DNA of 41,364 nt from a virus (IMGVR_UViG_3300012931_000036:1-41364); one strand, 5' to 3'. Positions 4,007 through 39,735 are shown, counted from the stretch's first letter. Numbers and translations are program-made. Notes: generated by a model from the sequence alone, not told the origin.

Positions 4007-4579
4007 ATGCCTATTTTAAACAATGGTGGGTTAGGTATAACTCCTGCATCAGGAGTTACTACATTTCTAGCGAGTCCTTCGTCTGCAAATCTTCGTGCTG
4101 CTTTGACAGATGAAACAGGCACTGGTGCTTTAGTTTTTGCAGGGGGTGCGTTAGGCGCAGCTACGGCAACGACTCCTGAATCTTTTCAAAATAATACCAA
4201 AGTCGCAACTACGGCATTTGTACATTGGCTTGCTGATTCTACACAAATTGGTACTCATGCAAACCCATCGACTACAACCCCACAGAATCCAAGCACCTAT
4301 GGTCCTCTGCGTGCCATTTGGTACGGCGTAACGGGAACTATTAATCTTCCCGCTGCTAGCGACAATTCTGGTAGAGGGGTTTTGGTATATAATACAGGAG
4401 CATTTACAATTACTCTTGAACCAAACGGAAGCGAGGTTATCGTACGTGATGGGACTGTGCAAACTGGCGGAGTTTCAATGACGCTTAGTTCTGGAGCCGG
4501 GAATTATGTGTATATCATAAGCGACGGAGTCAGATGGGTCACGCTTTGGTATAAAGGCACTCTTACTGAGGGCACTTAA
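4007..4579 (+). CDS. Fibre-like virion protein
   Basis: PSSANLRAALTDETGTGALVFA and NNTKVATTAFV fibre-repeat motifs; C-terminal ISDGVRW module. Confidence 0.65.
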   Translation: MPILNNGGLGITPASGVTTFLASPSSANLRAALTDETGTGALVFAGGALGAATATTPESFQNNTKVATTAFVHWLADSTQIGTHANPSTTTPQNPSTYGPLRAIWYGVTGTINLPAASDNSGRGVLVYNTGAFTITLEPNGSEVIVRDGTVQTGGVSMTLSSGAGNYVYIISDGVRWVTLWYKGTLTEGT

Positions 4580-4594
4580 TATATTTTCAAACTA

Positions 4595-4861
4595 ATGCCG
4601 GAACCCCATCAGAACAGGGCTGCCCAAGAGGCAGAGCTTGCTGCCGCAAGAGAGAAGCAACAGCGTATTGCGCTGGCTTACCATAGGTTGTTTAGCCGAG
4701 AAGGCGCGCGGACTCCAGATCAGCAGATTGTTATGCAAGACATGGAGGAACGCGGCCTGACGAGCAGCGCGGTAATTTCGGCTACATTCACCATTACAGA
4801 CCCGCCTGCTTCGCCGTTGACCTTTACAGCGCTGACGGTCGGCACGCTGGTTATCTCATGA
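4595..4861 (+). CDS. Chimeric ORF: Bbp19-like N-terminal half fused to an unrelated beta-strand tail
   Basis: AYHRLFSREGARTPDQQIVMQDM parallels AFLSVFGDPKRRSSDQEIVLEHL of 7385-7693. Confidence 0.5.
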   Translation: MPEPHQNRAAQEAELAAAREKQQRIALAYHRLFSREGARTPDQQIVMQDMEERGLTSSAVISATFTITDPPASPLTFTALTVGTLVIS

Positions 4862-8322: not shown

Positions 8323-9300
8323 ATGAGTGAAATCATAACTTCTTCCACTGCTGCCACAGGCAATGCCGACGCTACAACTCAAACGGGTGGCTCTACGAGT
8401 TCGGTATCTGCGGCGGCTTTTACTTCGACGGCTTCAACTACTACGGCCACGACCAACACAAGCGGCGCGGTTGAGCCATGGCATAAGGACTGGCTGCATG
8501 CTGACGGCTCTGTGAACAACAAGGCGCTCGACCGCCTGCCCGATGACATCAAGCACATCGCTCCTTCGCTGGCCAATGCCCGCAACATCGAGGACGTGAT
8601 GCGCAAGATTTCAACGCTAAATCTGATGGCTGGAAAGAAAGGGCTCGCCCCGTTGCCCGCTGATGCCCCTGCTGACGCCGTAAAGGCCCGCAATGAGCTG
8701 ATGCGACAGATTAACGGCGTGCCCGAGAAAGCCGCCGATTACGGCATTACGCGGCCTGATAACGTGCCGCCAGAGATGTGGAACGATGGCTACGTCAACG
8801 GAGCGCTCGACATCATGCACAAGTTCAACGCCCCGCCCGAAATGGTGAAGGCGCTTGTTGCACACAACATGCAGACTACTCAAGGACAGCAGGCCCAGCA
8901 AGCCGAGGCCGAAAAGGCATTCTTCGCCGATCAGAATAAGGCGGCTGCTGCGATGTTCGTTAAAGACGGCATGTCGGCTGAGAAGGGCTTTGACCTTGCT
9001 GCGCGTACAGCCCGACAGCTCGGAATTGATCCTGATGCTGACCCAGAGTTCAAGAGCGCAAAGACGATCTACGCCTTTGCTAAAGTAGCTCAGATGATTG
9101 GAGAGCCAAAGCTCGTAACGGGTGAAGGTAAGAACTTGGCCGGTAGCGCTGACCCTGCGTCGCTAGCGCATGACGTGCGGACCAACAAGGCGAATCCGCT
9201 CTACGCCGAATATTACAACGGCAATAAGGCCGTAATCGCCAAAGTGCAAGGATGGGAATTTGAAGCGCGTGCGCTCAAGGCGAAGGCAGGTGCGCGATGA
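8323..9300 (+). CDS. Capsid scaffolding/assembly protein
   Basis: Thr/Ser-rich N-terminus, GVPEKA.DY motif, helical body, position between portal and capsid. Confidence 0.8.
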   Translation: MSEIITSSTAATGNADATTQTGGSTSSVSAAAFTSTASTTTATTNTSGAVEPWHKDWLHADGSVNNKALDRLPDDIKHIAPSLANARNIEDVMRKISTLNLMAGKKGLAPLPADAPADAVKARNELMRQINGVPEKAADYGITRPDNVPPEMWNDGYVNGALDIMHKFNAPPEMVKALVAHNMQTTQGQQAQQAEAEKAFFADQNKAAAAMFVKDGMSAEKGFDLAARTARQLGIDPDADPEFKSAKTIYAFAKVAQMIGEPKLVTGEGKNLAGSADPASLAHDVRTNKANPLYAEYYNGNKAVIAKVQGWEFEARALKAKAGAR

Positions 9301-9563
9301 TTAAGCCTCTACGCGACGTGATTTTTTTTACACCCATTGAACTGCAAGACAAGATCGGTGGCATCTACGTCACCGACACGACCAAGATGGAAAGGAATCA
9401 GCGATTCGTGAAGGCGCGTGTTGTGGCGGCTGGGCCTCAGTGCATCGCTAAGGTTGGCGATATGATTCTCGTAACTGAGTGGGCTGATACTAGCAAGATG
9501 CAGATTGACGGTTTGGAAGTCTGGAATAAACGTGAACGCGACATAGTTGGGATATGCACATGA
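9297..9563 (+). CDS. groES: GroES/Cpn10-like co-chaperonin
   Basis: IKPLRD, GGIY mobile loop, ARVVAAGP, KVGD.ILV and RERDIVG motifs. Confidence 0.88.
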   Translation: MIKPLRDVIFFTPIELQDKIGGIYVTDTTKMERNQRFVKARVVAAGPQCIAKVGDMILVTEWADTSKMQIDGLEVWNKRERDIVGICT

Positions 9564-10039
9564 TTACACAAAAAACACTTAAGGAGTGGGTTAATTATTA
9601 CCCACTGAGCGGTAATTTCTACTGGCTGAAAGGTAAGAATATTCACAAAATGGCCGGAAGCAAGAACTCACAGGGGTACTATAAAATACGCATTTGTGGT
9701 TCGTTAATACCAGCGCATAAACTGGCATGGCTTTATGTCACTGGTAAATGGCCTACAAATGAGATAGATCACAAAGACTGCGATCCATCCAATAATTGTT
9801 TCGATAATCTGAGAGAAGCTACGCACGCAGAAAATTGCAGGAATAGACGCAAGCGAAGCGATCTCACTTCGAGATTTAAGGGTGTATCTTGGAAAAAACG
9901 GAATAAGAAGTGGTGTGCTCAAATTAAGACATCCGGTAAAGTATACCATCTTGGGCTGTTCCATACGGAGGAGCTTGCGCATCAATCCTATCAGTCAAAA
10001 GCGATTCAGTTATTCAAGGAGTTCGCTCGCCTAGTGTGA
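9560..10039 (+). CDS. HNH homing endonuclease with AP2 domain
   Basis: AHKLAWLY, EIDHKD..PSNN..DNLREAT..EN and AP2 FKGVSW...KW.AQI....HLG.F. Confidence 0.92.
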   Translation: MITQKTLKEWVNYYPLSGNFYWLKGKNIHKMAGSKNSQGYYKIRICGSLIPAHKLAWLYVTGKWPTNEIDHKDCDPSNNCFDNLREATHAENCRNRRKRSDLTSRFKGVSWKKRNKKWCAQIKTSGKVYHLGLFHTEELAHQSYQSKAIQLFKEFARLV

Positions 10040-29209: not shown

Positions 29210-30064
29210 TTAAGGTATTGGCATTTCCTGAATGTAGTCAGGAACGCTTATCGGCGTGATTTCATCGCTTGATCCTGGCCAAACGCCAGAGTCATAGCAC
29301 TGTTTCAGCCGTGCGAGATCGGACATGATGTGACGGCGAGCAACGTCTAGCGTGATTTCGTCGGGTTCCCTCACCTCAACTTGGTGCGGCTCCTCCTTTT
29401 CAATGACGACGAACAGGAATCGAGGGAATGGACCTCCCAGATTTGCCGCCTCTTGCGTGACGATGCGATAAAACGCAGCCTGTTTCCAGTAGTTGAACTT
29501 CAGGAATTGGCGGTTGAAGTTGCTCAGGTGGTCAATCGTCTTCACGTCTACAATGAGCGGCCTGCCGTACTTGTCTAGCGTGTCATCAAACCAGTCTAGG
29601 CGGCTCTGTATGTCGAAAGAGGCCATCTTGACCCTTGCGACTATTTCAGGCGTTCCTTTTTCAAACAGACGGGCGGCTACGGGCTTTGCACGGATCGCCT
29701 TCGTCATCTTCCACGCTAAGTCTAGGTCTTCTTCGGAGATTACGGACTTCCCTGCGTTTTTGCTGGCGAACGCTTCGGCGTCTGCCTTGCCTTGTTTCGT
29801 GCGGCGGTCGAATGAAGGCGACACACAGAATCTCTCTGCGAAGGCCGATTCACCTTCGAGCGTGAGGCAGTGAAAGGCTTCCCCGAAAGACATCGCCTCA
29901 GACTGGATGTTTTCCTTGGCGGCTTCTTTACTGATGTGTCTGCGGTAGTAGAGAAGCGGAAGGTTTGGCGCTGAGAAATCTGCCAGCCGATGGGAACTGA
30001 CGCCCTCGGTGGCGTGATATTTCGCGCTAGATTCGTTTCGGATTAGGCCGTATGCGGTGCTCAT
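29210..30064 (-). CDS. recE: RecE/exonuclease VIII-like PD-(D/E)XK nuclease (DUF3799-type)
   Basis: YHA..GVSS, FG.AFH..LE, DRRTK.GK, RLD, VDVKT, Y..QAAFY and FLFVVIEKE.P. Confidence 0.88.
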   Translation of the reverse strand: MSTAYGLIRNESSAKYHATEGVSSHRLADFSAPNLPLLYYRRHISKEAAKENIQSEAMSFGEAFHCLTLEGESAFAERFCVSPSFDRRTKQGKADAEAFASKNAGKSVISEEDLDLAWKMTKAIRAKPVAARLFEKGTPEIVARVKMASFDIQSRLDWFDDTLDKYGRPLIVDVKTIDHLSNFNRQFLKFNYWKQAAFYRIVTQEAANLGGPFPRFLFVVIEKEEPHQVEVREPDEITLDVARRHIMSDLARLKQCYDSGVWPGSSDEITPISVPDYIQEMPIP

Positions 30065-30774
30065 GATTTGGCCTTGCTTGCTTCGATGTCGGCGCGGATC
30101 TGTTCGTCACCTTGGAATAAATCTTCAGTGACAGGCAGTGTTTCCAGCTTTGGAGCGTCGAGCGCGGAAAGCCTTTCGACTGGCGCGGGCGGCGTAACGT
30201 TGCGCGGTTCAGGCGGAATATCCCGCGCCTCCTCAGAGGCCATGCAGCCCTTGAGGACGTCGCTAAATCCATCGCGCAAGGCCCAGCTACGGGCACGCAT
30301 CAAGAGCATGCGCTGAGGGTAGGAAGTCCATGGGCCAGCCTTACCCCACAATCCCGCTTTCCTTGCGTCATCAATTGAGAACGTGCGGATAATCGGCTCA
30401 GAGTTACCGCGCCGTTTCACCGTCACGCGAGCGAAGGTAGGCTGAATATCGTCCTTGTAGTCTTCGAGGAGGCCGGACGCGTCAACGATTGCCTTCATGG
30501 CATCGCCCCAAATCGAGGGACGGCCATTGATGACAGCGATTGAACTAAGTGCGGTCATTGGAGGAAGGCCAAGTTCTGCACCGAACTGCATGGCGACTAG
30601 AACGGCCTGAGGCGTTTTGAAATCCTTTGGAGCCCAGCCGCCATCAATTACGGCTTTAGCGAAGATCAGCGCTTGCTCCATGGTCTGGAGCGCTACGCCG
30701 TTTTGGCCAAAGTGCATTAGTGACGATTGTTTGGGTGCTCCAGCGATTGGGATGGTAGGCGTTTCGTTATTCAT
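30061..30774 (-). CDS. recT: RecT-like ssDNA annealing protein
   Basis: G.ELGL.PM.AL..I.VINGRPSIWGD, A.KAGLWGK.GPW..YP.RML..RA...ALRD.F.DVLKG; paired with RecE. Confidence 0.88.
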   Translation of the reverse strand: MNNETPTIPIAGAPKQSSLMHFGQNGVALQTMEQALIFAKAVIDGGWAPKDFKTPQAVLVAMQFGAELGLPPMTALSSIAVINGRPSIWGDAMKAIVDASGLLEDYKDDIQPTFARVTVKRRGNSEPIIRTFSIDDARKAGLWGKAGPWTSYPQRMLLMRARSWALRDGFSDVLKGCMASEEARDIPPEPRNVTPPAPVERLSALDAPKLETLPVTEDLFQGDEQIRADIEASKAKS

Positions 30775-33656: not shown

Positions 33657-33910
33657 AGTGTTGGTTTAGTAGTTGTTTCTCGTGCGATTATCATGGCGTC
33701 GGCTATGTCGTATGCCCAACGCGCGATTTTAGCTGGATCAGATGATGACGACCCATCTTGCAGGGGCATAGACGCCGATGTAATGGCTTTACCGGCGAAC
33801 CAGTCGCGCAGCGTCATGCCGGAATCATTATAATCCCGACGTTCGCCGTTTATACTTAGTGACCCAGATGATGGGAATGCCGATCCACCGTCGTTTATTC
33901 GTGTGCTCAT
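33653..33910 (-). CDS. Conserved small phage protein (DGG.AFP...GMTLRDWFAG.A family)
   Basis: INDGGSAFP, GMTLRDWFAGKA and A.WAYDIADAMI.AR motifs. Confidence 0.85.
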   Translation of the reverse strand: MSTRINDGGSAFPSSGSLSINGERRDYNDSGMTLRDWFAGKAITSASMPLQDGSSSSDPAKIARWAYDIADAMIIARETTTKPTL

Positions 33911-34308: not shown

Positions 34309-34824
34309 ATGAAGAAGATCCCATTAACAAAAGGCAAGTTCGCCATTGTAGATGACGAAGACTACGACAGGCTAATGAAATATAAATGGCACGAATCGAA
34401 TGGCTACGCGATACGTGTAATTAAACGTAAACCAAGAAAGAATGGTAAAAAGTCCAAATCTTTTTTGATGCATCGTGTAATAATGAAAGCTAGACGCGGG
34501 CAGTTTATCGATCATAAAAACATAGATAAACTCGATAATAGAAAAGAAAACCTCAGATTCTGCACGCCCCAACAGAATGCGTTTAATTTTGATATTTCAC
34601 GGAATAATAAAACAGGATACAAGGGAGTGCATATGCAGCCCAACGGAACGTATATAGCGATAATATACGTAGATGGGAAGGCGCGACGCCTTGGGTTGTT
34701 TTCAACCGCAAAAGAAGCAGGGGAGGCATATGATAAAGTCGCGCTAAAACACTTCGGTGAGTTTGCTAGAACCAATGCAATGATTCACGCTAACCGAACA
34801 ATGAATAACCCGCAACACATATGA
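34309..34824 (+). CDS. HNH-AP2 homing endonuclease
   Basis: IPLTKGKFAIVDDEDY, MHRVIM, IDHKN.DKLDNRKENLR, GYKGV, LG.F.TA.EA..AYD and FGEFA. Confidence 0.93.
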   Translation: MKKIPLTKGKFAIVDDEDYDRLMKYKWHESNGYAIRVIKRKPRKNGKKSKSFLMHRVIMKARRGQFIDHKNIDKLDNRKENLRFCTPQQNAFNFDISRNNKTGYKGVHMQPNGTYIAIIYVDGKARRLGLFSTAKEAGEAYDKVALKHFGEFARTNAMIHANRTMNNPQHI

Positions 34825-35237
34825 CAACTCAAAACTCAGATACACAAAATACCGTCGCCGAAGCCCCAGTCAATGGCGTTGGCCCTGGAGATTTGTTAGC
34901 TAATCTTACCCTGAAACAGAGTACGTGCCCACTATCCGATGTTGCCGCGCATAGCAGCAGTCCTAAAAACAACCTATACGTTTTAAGCGTCAAGCTTGAA
35001 CGCGAGAACGCAGCACTTCGAGCAGCTCTTGAACCATTCTCCCGCGAGTGGGCATCATGGCACGGCAAAAGCGCAAAGGCTGTGATGATATGCGAGGCCG
35101 GGTTTAGCCCAGTCGAAGCCGAGTTTACGCAGGACGACCTCCAGCGCGCTGCCGATATTTTGCTTAACAACCCAGTCAGCAACGCCGTGAGCGGGACTGA
35201 ACAACAGAACGGGCCAAGCAACGGCGTTGCGCTGTAG
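34821..35237 (+). CDS. Cassette 1 ORF, hypothetical
   Basis: N-terminus passes through attC half-site A; C-terminus is encoded by attC B. Confidence 0.65.
   Translation: MTTQNSDTQNTVAEAPVNGVGPGDLLANLTLKQSTCPLSDVAAHSSSPKNNLYVLSVKLERENAALRAALEPFSREWASWHGKSAKAVMICEAGFSPVEAEFTQDDLQRAADILLNNPVSNAVSGTEQQNGPSNGVAL
34875..34901 (-). mobile_element. attC-like half-site A (right arm only)
   Basis: GGCGTTGGCCC-T-GGAGATTT-GTTAGCT has the same geometry as the right arms of sites B-D; no matching left arm found. Confidence 0.5.
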
Positions 35238-35250
35238 TGGCTGGTTAGGC
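35162..35250 (-). mobile_element. attC-like site B (89 bp)
   Basis: GCTTAAC...AGTCAGCAACGCC / GGCGTT(GC)GCTG(T)AGT...GTTAGGC. Confidence 0.8.
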
Positions 35251-35261
35251 ATCTTTTACCT

Positions 35262-35507
35262 GTGAAACCAATAAATACAAAAACCCTCATTAACGTAATC
35301 AATCGCCTTCCTGCACCATCGCGGAAGGGCGAGGTGCATCAGGCGTATATTCGAAATCGCGTGGCCGAGCTGAACGAAGACTGGCCAATCTCAATCGAAG
35401 GTACTCCAGGCCGCGAAATATCGGGCATTGTAATACAGTTCATAGCCGTCGCGTACGTCAAAGATCGGAACCAGTGGCTGGAATGGGAGATCCTCAGTCT
35501 TGTCTAA
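35262..35507 (+). CDS. Cassette 2 ORF, hypothetical
   Basis: GTG start after site B; its TAA stop lies inside GTCTAAC of site C. Confidence 0.65.
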   Translation: MKPINTKTLINVINRLPAPSRKGEVHQAYIRNRVAELNEDWPISIEGTPGREISGIVIQFIAVAYVKDRNQWLEWEILSLV

Positions 35508-35596
35508 CGCCGGGGATGAGCAACGGCGAGCCAAGGACTAAATCTATGAACGAAAAGACACAATCCGAGCCGTTGCGCTCTAGCCCATTGTTAGGC
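35502..35596 (-). mobile_element. attC-like site C (95 bp) with AAGGA and ATG in its loop
   Basis: GTCTAAC...GATGAGCAACGGC / GCCGTT(GC)GCTC(T)AGC...GTTAGGC. Confidence 0.82.
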
Positions 35597-35827
35597 AATC
35601 TTAAAGTCGGTGATACTGTTGTCGCGACAACGATAATAACCCGCGTTGATAAGAAAGCCCGGCTCTGGCACGGGGATAAAGCGACCATTACGGATTTATT
35701 TAGGACTGAAGATGCGGTGATTGTCGGAGTCGAAACGGATAACGGGAGGCGTATTGGTGATATTGTTCTTTGGGGGAAACCGACCGACCTGTTGATTGCG
35801 GAGCCTAACAACCCGCATCAGCCATGA
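35546..35827 (+). CDS. Cassette 3 ORF, SH3/KOW-like small protein
   Basis: Starts within site C and stops within site D; LKVGDTVV...GDKATI pattern. Confidence 0.7.
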   Translation: MNEKTQSEPLRSSPLLGNLKVGDTVVATTIITRVDKKARLWHGDKATITDLFRTEDAVIVGVETDNGRRIGDIVLWGKPTDLLIAEPNNPHQP

Positions 35828-35897
35828 GCGACGAACAACAGAACGATAACGCCGCAGCCCCCGAGCAAGCGAATTGCGCTGTGGGCGATGGTTCGGC
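35803..35897 (-). mobile_element. attC-like site D (95 bp, inner stem degenerate)
   Basis: GCCTAAC...CATCAGC / GCTG(T)GGG...GTTCGGC; loop shares GAACAACAGAACG with site B. Confidence 0.7.
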
Positions 35898-36063
35898 GTC
35901 TTCCGTGGACGCAGCATTTATGGCCGAGTGGGCGAATATGTTTCCGGTAGGTGACGACGGAGGACTATCTCCAACTGCCGTGCATATCGCCATGGAGTGC
36001 TTCAGGCGCGGAGCACTCTGGCAAGCCTGTCAGCCGAACATCCGCCGATCAGACACGCCGTAG
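35824..36063 (+). CDS. Cassette 4 ORF, hypothetical
   Basis: Starts within site D and stops within site E. Confidence 0.6.
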   Translation: MSDEQQNDNAAAPEQANCAVGDGSASSVDAAFMAEWANMFPVGDDGGLSPTAVHIAMECFRRGALWQACQPNIRRSDTP

Positions 36064-36091
36064 GGCGTTGTCTGTATCGCGCTGGTTGGGG
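36033..36091 (-). mobile_element. attC-like site E (59 bp)
   Basis: GCCGAAC-6 nt-CGATCAGACACGCC-gtag-GGCGT(T)GTCTG(T)ATCG-5 nt-GTTGGGG, with two extrahelical bases. Confidence 0.88.
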
Positions 36092-36136
36092 CTCCGATTT
36101 TAACGCAACGACAACAATCAAATAACAGGAAATACT

Positions 36137-36475
36137 ATGAGTGGTGGAAGCTGGGATTACTTTTACGGGCGACTTGAAGAAGTCGCTTCACGTCTTCAAT
36201 GCGAGCGCGACCCGCTCCGCAAAGCATTTGGCTCGCATCTCCAAAAATGCGCGAAGGCGCTCCACGACATCGAGTGGGTGGACTCGTGCGACTCTGCGCC
36301 GGGCGACGAAGTGAAGGCGATCAAGGCCGTGCTCGGCACCGACGGCCCGGCGCTCGTTCTTTCTGAATCTCGCAAGCAGGCAGAAGCGGCGCTAGAACAA
36401 CTCAAGGCGGCGCTGGCAGATTGCCCTAACAACCGGGGTCAGACAATGGCGCTAGATAAACGGAAAACGATATGA
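36137..36475 (+). CDS. Cassette 5 ORF, MSGGS.DY phage family hypothetical
   Basis: AGGA RBS; MSGGSWDY...KALHDIEW.DS.D motif; reads through half-site F. Confidence 0.8.
   Translation: MSGGSWDYFYGRLEEVASRLQCERDPLRKAFGSHLQKCAKALHDIEWVDSCDSAPGDEVKAIKAVLGTDGPALVLSESRKQAEAALEQLKAALADCPNNRGQTMALDKRKTI
36423..36444 (-). mobile_element. attC-like half-site F (left arm only)
   Basis: GCCCTAAC-AACCGG-GGTCAGAC; its AAC box complements GTTGGGGC of site E. Confidence 0.6.
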
Positions 36476-36930
36476 AACACGAACGCAGGATTAGCATACA
36501 GGAATGTGCGGACGCTATTGGCATTTCTAGACAAGAAGTACGTACGATAATTATCGGCGCTGGCATAAACACAACACAAAGGAAATCGCCCAGATATTTT
36601 GGCCGCAAATTCATCAAAGTTTTAAAGCTGTCTGAGGTTAAGGCGGCACTCGCAAAACGCAGAAGCGAATCCGCTTTCATTAAGGAGTCGCGCGCAACCG
36701 CGTCGCTAATGATTCGGCGAAAGTACGGCACAGGAAAATGGGAAATACTGAAGGCAGGGCAATTCCCAAAACTGCCAGCGCACGCCAGCATGAAAACAAT
36801 TGCCGAAATCGAGCAGCACTTGAACAACGGGCTACTCTGCGAACAGGCAGAAGCCGCTTACCCGCGAATGGGCATGCACAGCCACGCAATTTACAAGGTC
36901 AGCCCAATCTACAAAAAGACGAGCCCATGA
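36472..36930 (+). CDS. Basic protein with an N-terminal HTH
   Basis: ISIQECADAIGISRQEVR. Confidence 0.65.
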   Translation: MKHERRISIQECADAIGISRQEVRTIIIGAGINTTQRKSPRYFGRKFIKVLKLSEVKAALAKRRSESAFIKESRATASLMIRRKYGTGKWEILKAGQFPKLPAHASMKTIAEIEQHLNNGLLCEQAEAAYPRMGMHSHAIYKVSPIYKKTSP

Positions 36931-37235
36931 CCTACGACATGTTCAGGCAAGTTTCTCCGGATAACGCACACTCGTATTATTCCGGCGAGCTTGCGAAGCA
37001 ATGCGCGCAATCGACGGACAAGGCCATAACTGACGCTCTAGGCAAACTTGGCATAGCGTTCGTGGACTATCATGCGTTGTCCAAGCGCATGACCTGCGAA
37101 ATCGACCCGCGCGACAATACCGAGACCTATACGCTCGACGGTGAGCCGATAATCAAATTCTGGCCGCTTGAGATCAAGACGGTGAACGAAGGTGCCAGCG
37201 TCAAGATAGTGGCCAGACGGAAATTTATCACATGA
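36927..37235 (+). CDS. Hypothetical protein
   Basis: ATGA-coupled start (MTYDMF). Confidence 0.65.
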   Translation: MTYDMFRQVSPDNAHSYYSGELAKQCAQSTDKAITDALGKLGIAFVDYHALSKRMTCEIDPRDNTETYTLDGEPIIKFWPLEIKTVNEGASVKIVARRKFIT

Positions 37236-37873
37236 GCACGAATCGCAAAGGAGCTTGGACGCCTAAAGGCAAAGGCCCGAACGGTCGCAACCTCTGCTAC
37301 TGCGGATGCGGTCGCGAAGTGCCGAAAGGATGCCGAACTACGTTCTCGCCGAAATGCTATTCTGACTGGTGTGCTAAATACGATCCAGCTACTCAAAGAA
37401 GGCTTGTTTATAAGCGCGATAAAGGAATTTGCGCAGCGTGCGGAGCCGATACCGAACAGCGAGCTAAAGAGGCTAGTGAAACAAAGCAGCTTATCCTTTG
37501 GCTAGCTAGGCGGCGCGCTGACGAATTATTCGCATGCGGAGAACTTCCAATGTACTCAGGGAGTACGCCACAGCAGAAAGCCTATGCTGAAGCCAGAAAG
37601 GCTGATGGCGAAAGGCCACACCCATACGATGCATACCGGTGGGCAGAGCATTGGACTAACGAGGAGATGCGCGAAAGGTTCGGCGAAGTTCGTGCGCACG
37701 ACGGCCACACATGGGAAGCAGACCACATTTTGCCCGTAATCGAGGGCGGCGGTGAGTGCGACCTGTCGAACCTCCGCACGCTCTGCTTAAAATGCCACCG
37801 GAAGGAAACGGCGGCACTGGCCAAGCGTCGCGCGGAAAAAAGAAAAACAGTGAAACAGCTTTCGTTATTATGA
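37232..37873 (+). CDS. Zn-binding HNH endonuclease with a helical insertion
   Basis: CYCGC, VYKRDKGICAACG and WEADHILPV.EGGG.C.L.NLRTLCLKCH. Confidence 0.9.
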   Translation: MSTNRKGAWTPKGKGPNGRNLCYCGCGREVPKGCRTTFSPKCYSDWCAKYDPATQRRLVYKRDKGICAACGADTEQRAKEASETKQLILWLARRRADELFACGELPMYSGSTPQQKAYAEARKADGERPHPYDAYRWAEHWTNEEMRERFGEVRAHDGHTWEADHILPVIEGGGECDLSNLRTLCLKCHRKETAALAKRRAEKRKTVKQLSLL

Positions 37874-38490
37874 CGCTCGAATCCGACCATCCAGCCAAGC
37901 AAACGCCCGGTAAGGCCATCGCGGCCCGGCTCTGGCAAGAAAAGGCCAGGGCAGGCAAGCCGATGACCGAGGCGCAAGTCGGCAATGTCATCGACGGTAT
38001 GCTAAAGGAACTCGGCATGTCAAAGAAGCGTGCGCGTGTAGGAGGCCGAGATTTGCTTTTTGACGCCCTTTGCGTGGCGTGTGGCACAAACCCTCAAGAG
38101 GTCACTCGGATGGCCGCTACTGGGATTGGAACGGCCCTAGCTGACATTGCAGCGGTGACGCCAAACCTTACGCCGGAAGAATTCGGCATCCGTGCGGCGA
38201 AATACCGTCGCGAGCATCCCGACTGGGAGTTGACGCCAACAGCGCTTTGCACGCACTGGGGCGAACTCGGGACCGGCGACGCTGGGCAGACCGTGGCATC
38301 AATGCACGCGGCGGAGCCTAACGGGTGGCAGGAAGTAGCGACGCGTATGTTTCAAGAGGCCGAATGGGATGCTGGATCAATAGCCGTCATCCTGCAAAAT
38401 GGATGGTCAGGCATGTCGCTAGGACACCGTAAGGCGATCCAGAATCGAATCACCCGCTCAGCCGTAGTCACAAGAAATATTTCAGATTGA
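37870..38490 (+). CDS. Hypothetical protein, possibly related to replication-initiator C-terminal domains
   Basis: ATGA-coupled start; RD.LFDAL..ACG and LTPTAL..HW motifs. Confidence 0.5.
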   Translation: MTLESDHPAKQTPGKAIAARLWQEKARAGKPMTEAQVGNVIDGMLKELGMSKKRARVGGRDLLFDALCVACGTNPQEVTRMAATGIGTALADIAAVTPNLTPEEFGIRAAKYRREHPDWELTPTALCTHWGELGTGDAGQTVASMHAAEPNGWQEVATRMFQEAEWDAGSIAVILQNGWSGMSLGHRKAIQNRITRSAVVTRNISD

Positions 38491-38539
38491 TCGAAAATTT
38501 GCTTGCAAATCTAAAATTCATATGACTTCTTCACTCCAA

Positions 38540-38617
38540 CAACAGCAGGATGCACTTGCTGGTTTACCAGTAGGTCTCCTGCCGATAATCCACCGATTGC
38601 ATCCCGGTGGATTTTTT
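38540..38617 (+). promoter_or_regulatory. Two-hairpin attenuator with complementary loops (copy 2)
   Basis: CAGCA-GGATGCA-CTTGCTG ... AATCCACCG-ATTGCATCC-CGGTGGATTTTTT. Confidence 0.75.
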
Positions 38618-38881
38618 GTTTTTAGAAATCTCCGCCGCTCTAATGCCTCGGCGTTGGCTACCTCAAACGCTGGTTTTTTGGCTAGCGTCTTAAGTCCTGA
38701 AGGTGTGGTAGAGCCCCTACTTCAGGCAGGGGGTTCAAATGGAACTCACAGATTGGGCAAACGCGACGCGACAAGCACAGCAGATGTGCGCCAAAAGGCC
38801 GGACCTCACCTAGTCCGCTAGGGGGCTCTGTATTTCTCCTGATCGGGCAAACTTTAGACAGACAACCAAACCAGAAACCAA

Positions 38882-39073
38882 ATGCAAAACAAAAACATAG
38901 TTCCATTCACGCAGGACGTCGGAAACGCCGTCGCTGCTTTGCCAGTATCGGTGCAACTGATTGAGGTTGGCAAATGGCGTGTGAATTTCTGCGGCACTGA
39001 GCAGATCGTCAAATCTGGCACCATCAACTTTCGCGCCGATGGAAAACTTGATGTGGAGACCGTATTTTCATGA
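38882..39073 (+). CDS. Hypothetical protein
   Basis: A-rich leader; first ORF after the structured region. Confidence 0.6.
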   Translation: MQNKNIVPFTQDVGNAVAALPVSVQLIEVGKWRVNFCGTEQIVKSGTINFRADGKLDVETVFS

Positions 39074-39303
39074 AAATACGAGACTGGCAGGTAATCACCA
39101 TCATATCTGATGAAGTCTACGAAGAAGTAGATTGTAACTCTGGCGACCGCCGCACGATGCATAAAGGAGGAATATGCTTTAACTGTGGAGAAACAAAGCC
39201 ATGTGCGCACACTGATCTAGGGCCTGTGTGCTCTGACGCATGCGAAAACGGCTTATTTAGTAGAGATAATCGAGCTGACCGAACCCCATGCGCGACAAAA
39301 TAA
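39070..39303 (+). CDS. Small Cys-rich (Zn-finger-like) protein
   Basis: CFNCG...CSDAC. Confidence 0.6.
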   Translation: MKIRDWQVITIISDEVYEEVDCNSGDRRTMHKGGICFNCGETKPCAHTDLGPVCSDACENGLFSRDNRADRTPCATK

Positions 39304-39518
39304 CCCTAGAGATGCACGAGACAATTATCCGGTTGAGAAAAGAGGCTAAAATGGGCGACCATAGAATAGCAAATCTGCTTGGGCTGGACCACAGGTCGAT
39401 CTATTACGACCGCTGCAAACGAAAGACGCCATACCGTGAAGACGTAACTGGTGCAGCCATCCCAATCCTAGAAACCGCTCTTGCCAAACTCCGCGCCAAG
39501 CCGACGCAACCAAATTGA
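39288..39518 (+). CDS. Small HTH-like protein
   Basis: IIRLRKE..MG..RIANLLGLDHRSI. Confidence 0.6.
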   Translation: MRDKITLEMHETIIRLRKEAKMGDHRIANLLGLDHRSIYYDRCKRKTPYREDVTGAAIPILETALAKLRAKPTQPN

Positions 39519-39534
39519 ATCACCATGAAAAAAC

Positions 39535-39735
39535 ATGAAGCCCGACCTCTGCGAGAAATGCGCCGCGCATGGCATAATCGCCACAAAGCATGGCCCGACG
39601 TGCTCGCACTCGACGCCTGCTGGCGAGAGCTGGTGGCCTGCTGAGTGGGCGACAATGCTAGAGGCGCAAAGACTTTCTTGGATTAAGGAAAACCGTCAGA
39701 CTAAATCAACCTATGAAAATCGAACTAAACGATAA
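39535..39735 (+). CDS. Hypothetical protein
   Basis: ORF in the rightward operon; CEKC motif. Confidence 0.5.
   Translation: MKPDLCEKCAAHGIIATKHGPTCSHSTPAGESWWPAEWATMLEAQRLSWIKENRQTKSTYENRTKR

Follow-up and report, generated by a model that had tools for sequence, protein, structure and literature searches.

How a phage genome that encodes no integrase comes to carry a row of small genes set between integron-type recombination sites is the question raised by the window analysed here, the whole 41,364-nt phage record IMGVR_UViG_3300012931_000036. The array of five small genes among attC-type sites is real: it consists of four attC sites (B, C, D and E) within 930 nt and two terminal half-sites (A and F; Table 1). 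The sites are of the Opitutaceae type and the genes are flipped relative to them, and we consider it likely that the units are cut and joined at the AAC of the left core box by an IntI acting from outside this phage.

Table 1. Coordinates of sites, genes and predicted cassette units of the array, and of the phage recombination genes, counted from the first letter of the window.
Feature	Position	Strand	Length	Remarks
RecE-like exonuclease and RecT-like annealing protein	29210..30774	-		rival route to gene exchange
Site A	34821..34901	+		gene 1 start and right arm only; GTTAGCT box at 34895-34901; upstream anchor
Gene 1	34821..35237	+	138 aa	starts in A, runs through hairpin B, stops in right arm of B
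attC site B	35162..35250	+ (recombining, bottom strand)	89 nt	predicted crossover 35167/35168
Gene 2	35262..35507	+	up to 81 aa	stop is the TAA within the left box of C
Gene 2 unit	35168-35507		340 nt	
attC site C	35502..35596	+	95 nt	loop with likely ribosome-binding site and gene 3 ATG (35549)
Gene 3	35549..35827	+	92 aa from loop ATG	stops in left arm of D, overlapping the next ATG
Gene 3 unit	35508-35808		301 nt	
attC site D	35803..35897	+	95 nt	L boxes pair, inner stem poor
Gene 4	35824..36063	+	79 aa	starts in loop of D, stops at tip of hairpin E
Gene 4 unit	35809-36038		230 nt	
attC site E	36033..36091	+	59 nt	two bulged T, separated by six pairs; spacers of 7 and 6
E-gene 5 unit common to relative L001	36037..36434	+		hairpin E and gene 5 to left box of F
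E-gene 5 cassette	36039-36429		391 nt	
Gene 5	36137..36475	+	112 aa	widespread phage family
Site F	36424..36475	+		left arm only; position of attI/intI in related phage integrons (G014, G018)

The record belongs to the class with direct terminal repeats. The 123-nt repeat sits within low-complexity sequence, and the CheckV figure for the record is 74%. A low-complexity repeat gene (Ala-rich, minus strand) extends across the contig ends (41020-41364 and 1-200) and contains this repeat. The relative G001 is collinear with the window through its end junction at similar spacing (1.1 vs 1.2 kb), so that an integrase-sized gene is unlikely to be missing from the record. The gene content comprises terminase, portal, capsid and tail genes, a RecE/RecT pair and several HNH genes, and many ORFs are without a family match. 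One of the HNH genes (34309-34824, plus strand) separates site A from the intergenic region ahead of it; the relatives L001 and L162 have no HNH gene at this position, and its final 21 nt are similar to the left arm of site D (repeat D7). A GroES-like gene and two further HNH genes lie at 9297-9563, 9554-10039 and 37232-37873. In comparison with G001 the structural module is far more diverged than the early module, and G001 has about 3.6 kb extra (35959-39574) between blocks shared with the window at 848-1004. An Rfam search of the window and a blastn search against 50,697 cultured-phage records returned no match, and searches with the portal and RecT indicated no phage host.

The sites are attC sites of the integron type, as was originally proposed. 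Such sites have inverted core boxes with conserved AAC and GTT and a length of 57-141 nt (PMC5027507, consulted in part), and B, C, D and E combine inverted AAC/GTT boxes with lengths inside this range. Their spacers measure 5/5, 6/5, 6/5 and 7/6 nt, respectively, next to the 5-6 nt of attC sites, and their L boxes pair with a bulge on the right arm of the plus strand, most weakly in D. Site E is indeed 59 nt long with two bulged bases, both of them T and both on the right arm of the plus strand. The second bulged T, six pairs from the first, is clear in E; in B and C it occurs with one mismatch, and the stem of D is poor. The first bulged base is T in all four sites and not G as is usual for attC, although C was as frequent as G among 93 general bacterial sites. 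This T is not diagnostic against attC, since chromosomal arrays of Opitutaceae type beside intI share it. The base after AAC is A in B, D, E and F, as opposed to G in 89/90 and 70/70 bacterial sites.

Covariance models lead to the same identification. Our general bacterial set of 84 loci (80 intI loci and four annotated records) yielded 93 clustered sites, called by rule in 22 of the loci, and 43 of 49 genes between them were in the usual polarity. A general model built from 47 of these sites gave 29.6 bits for C, 26.2 for B, 14.9 for E and 10-11 for D on the plus strand; three published sites of Tetrasphaera phage TJE1 scored 25-35 bits. A second model, built from 31 Verrucomicrobiota chromosomal sites (7 of them from loci found with site B), gave C 42.2, B 40.5, E 28.8 and D 20.5 bits, which are the top four matches of the genome, all on the plus strand. 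B and C thus exceed 25 bits in the general model and all four sites exceed 20 bits in the Verrucomicrobiota model, the E-values of both being rough and the models our own, not those of IntegronFinder. The next match after D reaches 15 bits (33794-33847) and was treated as chance because it lies inside a coding gene. The Verrucomicrobiota model also scores attC sites of other bacteria highly and is therefore no test of host. Our first rule-based scanner recovered only B and E plus two background matches in the window, and it missed most Shewanella sites.

With four sites in 930 nt and no intI, the locus is a CALIN, defined as at least two clustered attC sites with no nearby intI (PMC4889954, available in part). 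It probably functions as an integron cassette array does, without amounting to a complete integron: an intI gene is absent, and in place of top-strand genes ending before their own attC it has bottom-strand genes behind their hairpin. Site F stands at the attI end but resembles the left arm of an attC site, and the terminal halves vary among relatives.

The core boxes carry the signature of cassettes. The original prediction held that the box before a gene complements the box after the same gene, for sites D and E better than the two boxes of one hairpin pair with each other; over three phages the cross-gene pairing is the better of the two. Scored on the four outer box bases per gene, cross-gene pairing in the window is 1, 3, 4, 4 and 3 (15/20) and pairing within the hairpins is 3, 3, 3 and 2; the window alone is borderline, with 15/20 reached by 6 of 120 permutations. 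For the window, L001 and L162 together, 48 of 56 bases pair across genes compared to 28 of 48 within hairpins, and none of 100,000 permutations reached the cross-gene value, also without the shared cassette. Cassette 1 of the window, for which a poorer match had been noted from the start, pairs at 1/4 bases, and the last cassette of L162 at 2/4. Host arrays display the same cross-gene pairing in 38 of 39 gaps, in agreement with its interpretation as a cassette signature.

Folding is less uniform among the sites. B and C form long hairpins, but D does not in its lowest-energy fold; the hairpins, boxes and five ORFs first described are present at their positions, with the exception that D had been counted as a complete hairpin. 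The computed probability of a recombination-ready fold is 0.0002 for D and 0.07-0.33 for B, C and E, in a test in which host attC sites range from 0.0 to 0.87, and site D may be inactive. A loose scan for AAC-to-GTT folds was non-discriminating (76 of 466 pairs passed).

Cross-gene pairing is valid in either polarity and cannot decide how genes and sites are oriented to each other; the bulges can be used for this. In an attC site the AAC that is cut belongs to the bottom strand, and the bulges occupy the opposite arm (PMC5027507). In the window they lie on the right arm of the plus strand, which is therefore the bottom strand and at the same time the coding strand. With weight matrices derived from 90 bacterial sites, the plus strand is preferred as bottom strand for B (30.6 vs 12.0), C (39.7 vs 13.9) and E (20.6 vs -2.8), while D is ambiguous (22.9 vs 22.1). 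Among 53 gaps of 11 phage-type arrays, the window included, 19 are open on the bottom strand only, none on the top strand only, 30 on both and 4 on neither; in four host arrays (39 gaps) 28 are open on the top strand only and 1 on the bottom strand only. By the cruder longest-ORF rule, 35 of 45 genes in phage-type arrays are flipped and 10 canonical. The sites are thus inverted with respect to the genes, which places the predicted crossover in the left AAC box and assigns each hairpin to its downstream gene. The attC reading first given for the locus was correct in itself and overlooked this inversion.

Further arrays (L030, L033, L036, L040 and L048) are flipped with ordinary G or C bulges, so that the flip is not confined to the Opitutaceae type. 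Some of their hairpins are close to those of an Aquabacterium integron (L080).

The unusual site type of the window is, judged from the site sequences, that of Opitutaceae chromosomal integrons, a point likewise overlooked at first. T occupies the first bulge in 1 of the 93 general bacterial sites and in 20/20, 9/9, 12/14 and 4/4 sites of four Verrucomicrobiota arrays beside intI. The corresponding count in phage-type arrays (32/57) is biased, as these arrays were picked with T-bulge patterns. Of 401 genomes from the class to which an Opitutus record belongs, 6 contain a pattern for the T-bulge subtype; G186 has 17 copies and G195 has 9, many of them adjoining intI. The array of G186 has 22 sites in the stretch examined, in usual polarity, with perfect cross-gene boxes in 21/21 gaps. 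The idea that the T bulge is a phage-specific trait was rejected because of its presence in such chromosomal arrays. For site B itself, matches at E <= 1e-4 were obtained in 8 of 201 Opitutaceae genomes, the best with 75-80% identity over about 80 nt; here the family name rests on G009 and G186, members of the same family sample, and on L135 (Opitutus sp.). No site of the window matched among 201 Planctomycetota, 145 Verrucomicrobiaceae or 201 Acidobacteriota genomes, and the matches in two of the latter were short and in gene 5. No cassette gene matched any of the 201 Opitutaceae genomes. From the similarity of the sites, Opitutaceae are the likely hosts of the phage.

Comparison with relatives provides insight into how the array changes. 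In L001 an array lies at the same place with other genes, except for one block shared with the window (Table 1), which is 398 nt long, 99.5% identical and bordered by unrelated sequence on both flanks. The block extends from the AAC of the left box of E to four bases past the AAC of F, which is the unit expected from an IntI cut between A and C in the left box on the plus strand. Its identity indicates that it moved recently. The unit of E and gene 5 is also present in the run X5 contig. L162 carries six other cassettes at the same locus, five of them with perfect cross-gene boxes, together with a site 93% identical to B; the segment 34821-34886 of the window is 91% identical to its first array element. 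The three related early modules accordingly differ almost wholly in their arrays and keep the cross-gene pairing intact. A 151-nt public contig with gene 3 diverges from the window right after 35809, at the AAC of D (12 loose bases only), and L257 and L258 have a hairpin and its downstream gene in common and differ before the AAC. Cassette content therefore changes among relatives with breaks at the core box (L001, L257/L258, the gene 3 contig), as the cassette interpretation had implied. Across 12 arrays, two pairs share an identical hairpin with its downstream gene and none shares a hairpin with its upstream gene; L164/L170, L166/L175, L171/L172, L173/L178 and L001/L161 were counted once, as same contigs or near-copies. 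One relative search had no array in three of its six loci, nor was there one in L174, and a further search returned L001 and one chance match.

Other pairs share less. Five pairs (four of them independent) have only the hairpin in common, with different genes on both sides, B and D being among these hairpins, so that crossover in the left box alone is insufficient as an explanation. The look-alike hairpin pair L256 1213 / L263 4945 stands outside this count because the ungapped rule missed it. We rejected the view of D as a one-off chimera, since both of its arms recur in one site of phage L164. On the reverse strand of L164 (2494-2560 and 3998-4060) one left arm with its loop is found twice, identical from the AAC onward, and one of the two copies is without a right arm. 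The tail of F (36449-36475, from the loop to the next start codon) is common to the window, L001 (about 4560-4590) and the run X6 contig, in each behind a different left arm.

The reading frames extend into the sites. The start codons of genes 3 and 4 lie within the loops of C and D. In genes 1, 3, 4 and 5 the left AAC serves as a codon, and the stop follows 21-72 nt further on, within the next site. Of 45 arriving reading frames in phage-type arrays, 35 have the AAC in frame, 8 have it in phase 1 and 2 in phase 2. A unit inserted behind any gene would therefore usually provide a stop and a new start. The cassette genes themselves are diverse. The family of gene 5 comprises 57 viral loci, most of them outside arrays, in mostly viral clusters, and it recurs in flipped arrays of another site type (L030/L033, L040, L048). 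The head and body of gene 1 match different proteins separately among relatives. No relative was found for genes 2 and 3 (the gene 3 search returned only itself), PADLOC and NCBIfam searches of the cassette genes gave nothing, and gene 1 had no family match.

Searches of the phage genome with PF00589 and TIGR02249 gave no match, and a profile that included phage-type IntIs detected neither intI nor a remnant in six frames of the window and G001, where its control scored 511 bits; no tyrosine recombinase was thus found in the genome, as stated at the outset. Past site F follows an unrelated 152-aa gene for which no viral relative was found. IntI is present in 86 of the 301 Verrucomicrobiota genomes searched. 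Among 13 virus records, many of them fragments, two encode IntI (G014 and the provirus G018), nine are without an integrase match, one has a different tyrosine recombinase and one a weak match. The tyrosine recombinase of G005 was rejected as an IntI because it is without the IntI insert. In G014 and G018 the last half-site is directly followed by intI, encoded on the strand of the genes, which means that the sites face intI as in bacteria, that only the genes are flipped, and that F stands at the attI end. The Opitutaceae genome G771 has a prophage-like contig with the same layout of array and intI, near a transposase and an anti-repressor. Catalytic residues and IntI insert are preserved in the IntIs of these three sources, whose identity is 33-37% to host IntIs and 38-46% among themselves. 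In a quick tree of 95 proteins the IntIs of G014 and G018 stand apart on long branches, whereby a phage clade is perhaps exaggerated.

Many Verrucomicrobiota IntI frames span 430-560 aa with an N-terminal extension of at least 100 aa (L231, L259, L260 and others). The last cassette of G014 before intI (L256, about 4090-4740), with a DPPY motif seen by eye, presumably encodes a DNA methyltransferase, and an A-rich stretch resembling an attI site comes after its far box.

With two phages and a prophage-like contig encoding divergent IntIs of their own, the enzyme need not be that of the host. The original prediction invoked the host integron integrase acting in trans; supply from outside is likely, and the host is one candidate source among others, as phage-encoded IntIs stand right behind related arrays. 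An enzyme from a prophage in the same cell, or from an ancestral phage, is about as good an explanation.

By analogy with known integron chemistry, the plus strand would fold into a hairpin, IntI would cut the left box between A and C, and hairpin and downstream gene would leave together as a circle that is then inserted elsewhere, at a different site. As each hairpin stands ahead of its own gene, the loop would provide the start codon and the left arm the stop of the preceding gene, and reshuffled units would in this way remain translated from a phage promoter upstream. The IntI could be that of a chromosomal integron in the host, or a phage-type IntI supplied by a prophage resident in the same cell. 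We weigh both about equally, with a slight lean to the prophage, as such a donor would supply both the enzyme and the flipped cassettes. It may also be that a donor or an ancestor formed the junctions and that they reached this phage as blocks.

The last point leads to the question of whether the array is still subject to site-specific recombination at all. It could be a relic, with junctions built by donor phages or by an ancestor with its own IntI, the integrase lost at F, and only homologous or illegitimate recombination now acting, for example by RecE/RecT. Related phages do have intI exactly at the position of F, sites A, D and F are partial or fold poorly, the RecE/RecT genes are present, and the early region is mosaic compared to G001 well beyond the limits of the array too. 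The unit shared with L001, however, has nothing but AAC in common at its left edge, which is too little for homologous pairing, and at 99.5% identity it is recent. Nor do the almost wholly different arrays of the three early modules with their intact cross-gene pairing, or the absence of an intI remnant from the window and G001, fit a relic, and we regard this explanation as unlikely. Another origin of the enzyme, an unrecognised recombinase of the phage itself such as a small Xer-like protein, might hide among the many ORFs without a family match. The genome yields no PF00589 or TIGR02249 match and the six-frame IntI profile is empty, the sites match those beside true IntI genes, and the collinearity of G001 over the contig ends leaves no room for a missing gene; such an enzyme would be very surprising.

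The hairpins shared without their genes raise a different possibility, namely that both strands recombine and that crossovers in left and right boxes reassort hairpins, with the heads and tails they encode, independently of gene bodies. Apart from the occurrence of B and D between different genes in other phages, this would account for the right box in the D pair, which matches the far box of the new downstream gene, for the public contig that tracks the right arm of B for 45 nt without a difference and leaves it inside the right box, and for the heads and bodies of gene 1 with their separate matches. Yet in the two pairs whose hairpins are identical the break falls at the left box, and no pair includes the upstream gene. 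Host arrays such as that of G186, moreover, regularly have near-identical hairpins on different genes, which are ascribed there to cassette creation. We therefore give recombination of both strands little credence and retain joining at the left box by an outside IntI as the probable explanation.

Clusters of attC sites in phages without an integrase are already published: 17 phage CALINs are described in PMC9892861, with IntI1 active on five of six phage sites, including two of the three sites of Tetrasphaera phage TJE1. TJE1 resembles the window in having several attC sites between small ORFs and no intI, and B and C score like its sites. Its three sites, however, are in usual polarity, with the bottom strand opposite the genes, whereas the window is reversed. 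The accessible text of that paper reports for its phages no cassette exchange between relatives, no gene starts within hairpins and no Opitutaceae type. The window hence differs from the published phage examples in polarity (judged on TJE1), in site type and in documented exchange. In a literature search whose coverage left out most subscription papers, none of the papers listed dealt with flipped phage cassettes, with IntIs specific to phages or with an attC type of Opitutaceae.

The Opitutaceae chromosomal integrons of G186, G195, G078 and related genomes have the same T-bulge subtype, often the extra bulged base, cross-gene pairing and similarity to site B. They differ in having intI, long uniform arrays in usual polarity (40/41) and no cassette gene in common with the phage, while the phage sites are varied and often coding and their genes flipped. 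The phage integrons of G014, G018 and the G771 contig share site type, flipped genes and a terminal left half-site with the window; in these, the last half-site is followed by intI on the strand of the genes, in contrast to the unrelated gene at that place in the window. Class 1 attC sites (attCaadA7 type) share AAC/GTT, L boxes, an unpaired spacer, bulges opposite the cut AAC and the length range; according to the consulted part of PMC5027507 their first bulge is usually G, while the window has T, mostly A after AAC, and spacers one base longer in E.

The few published phage attC clusters have been discussed as a route for moving bacterial cassettes. Three early modules with different arrays at one locus and a recent swap at the predicted base point to a working system by which phages shuffle accessory genes. 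The hairpins reused on different genes bear on how new cassettes are made, and concrete substrates and enzymes for a standard assay are available in the flipped genes, the site type matched to the host and the divergent IntIs of phages. Tentatively, and with the chances somewhat against it, we also propose that Opitutaceae phages have an integron branch of their own, with a group of phage IntIs and a shared pool of flipped cassettes whose hairpins carry starts and stops, in which phages without an integrase would use the enzymes of prophages and the flip would act as a firewall. The idea of a firewall was suggested by the frequent presence of phage defence genes in integron cassettes (10.1101/2024.07.02.601719, seen in part). 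If it is true, host cassettes, defence genes included, would land antisense to the phage promoter and be silent, and phage cassettes would in turn be silent in a host array.
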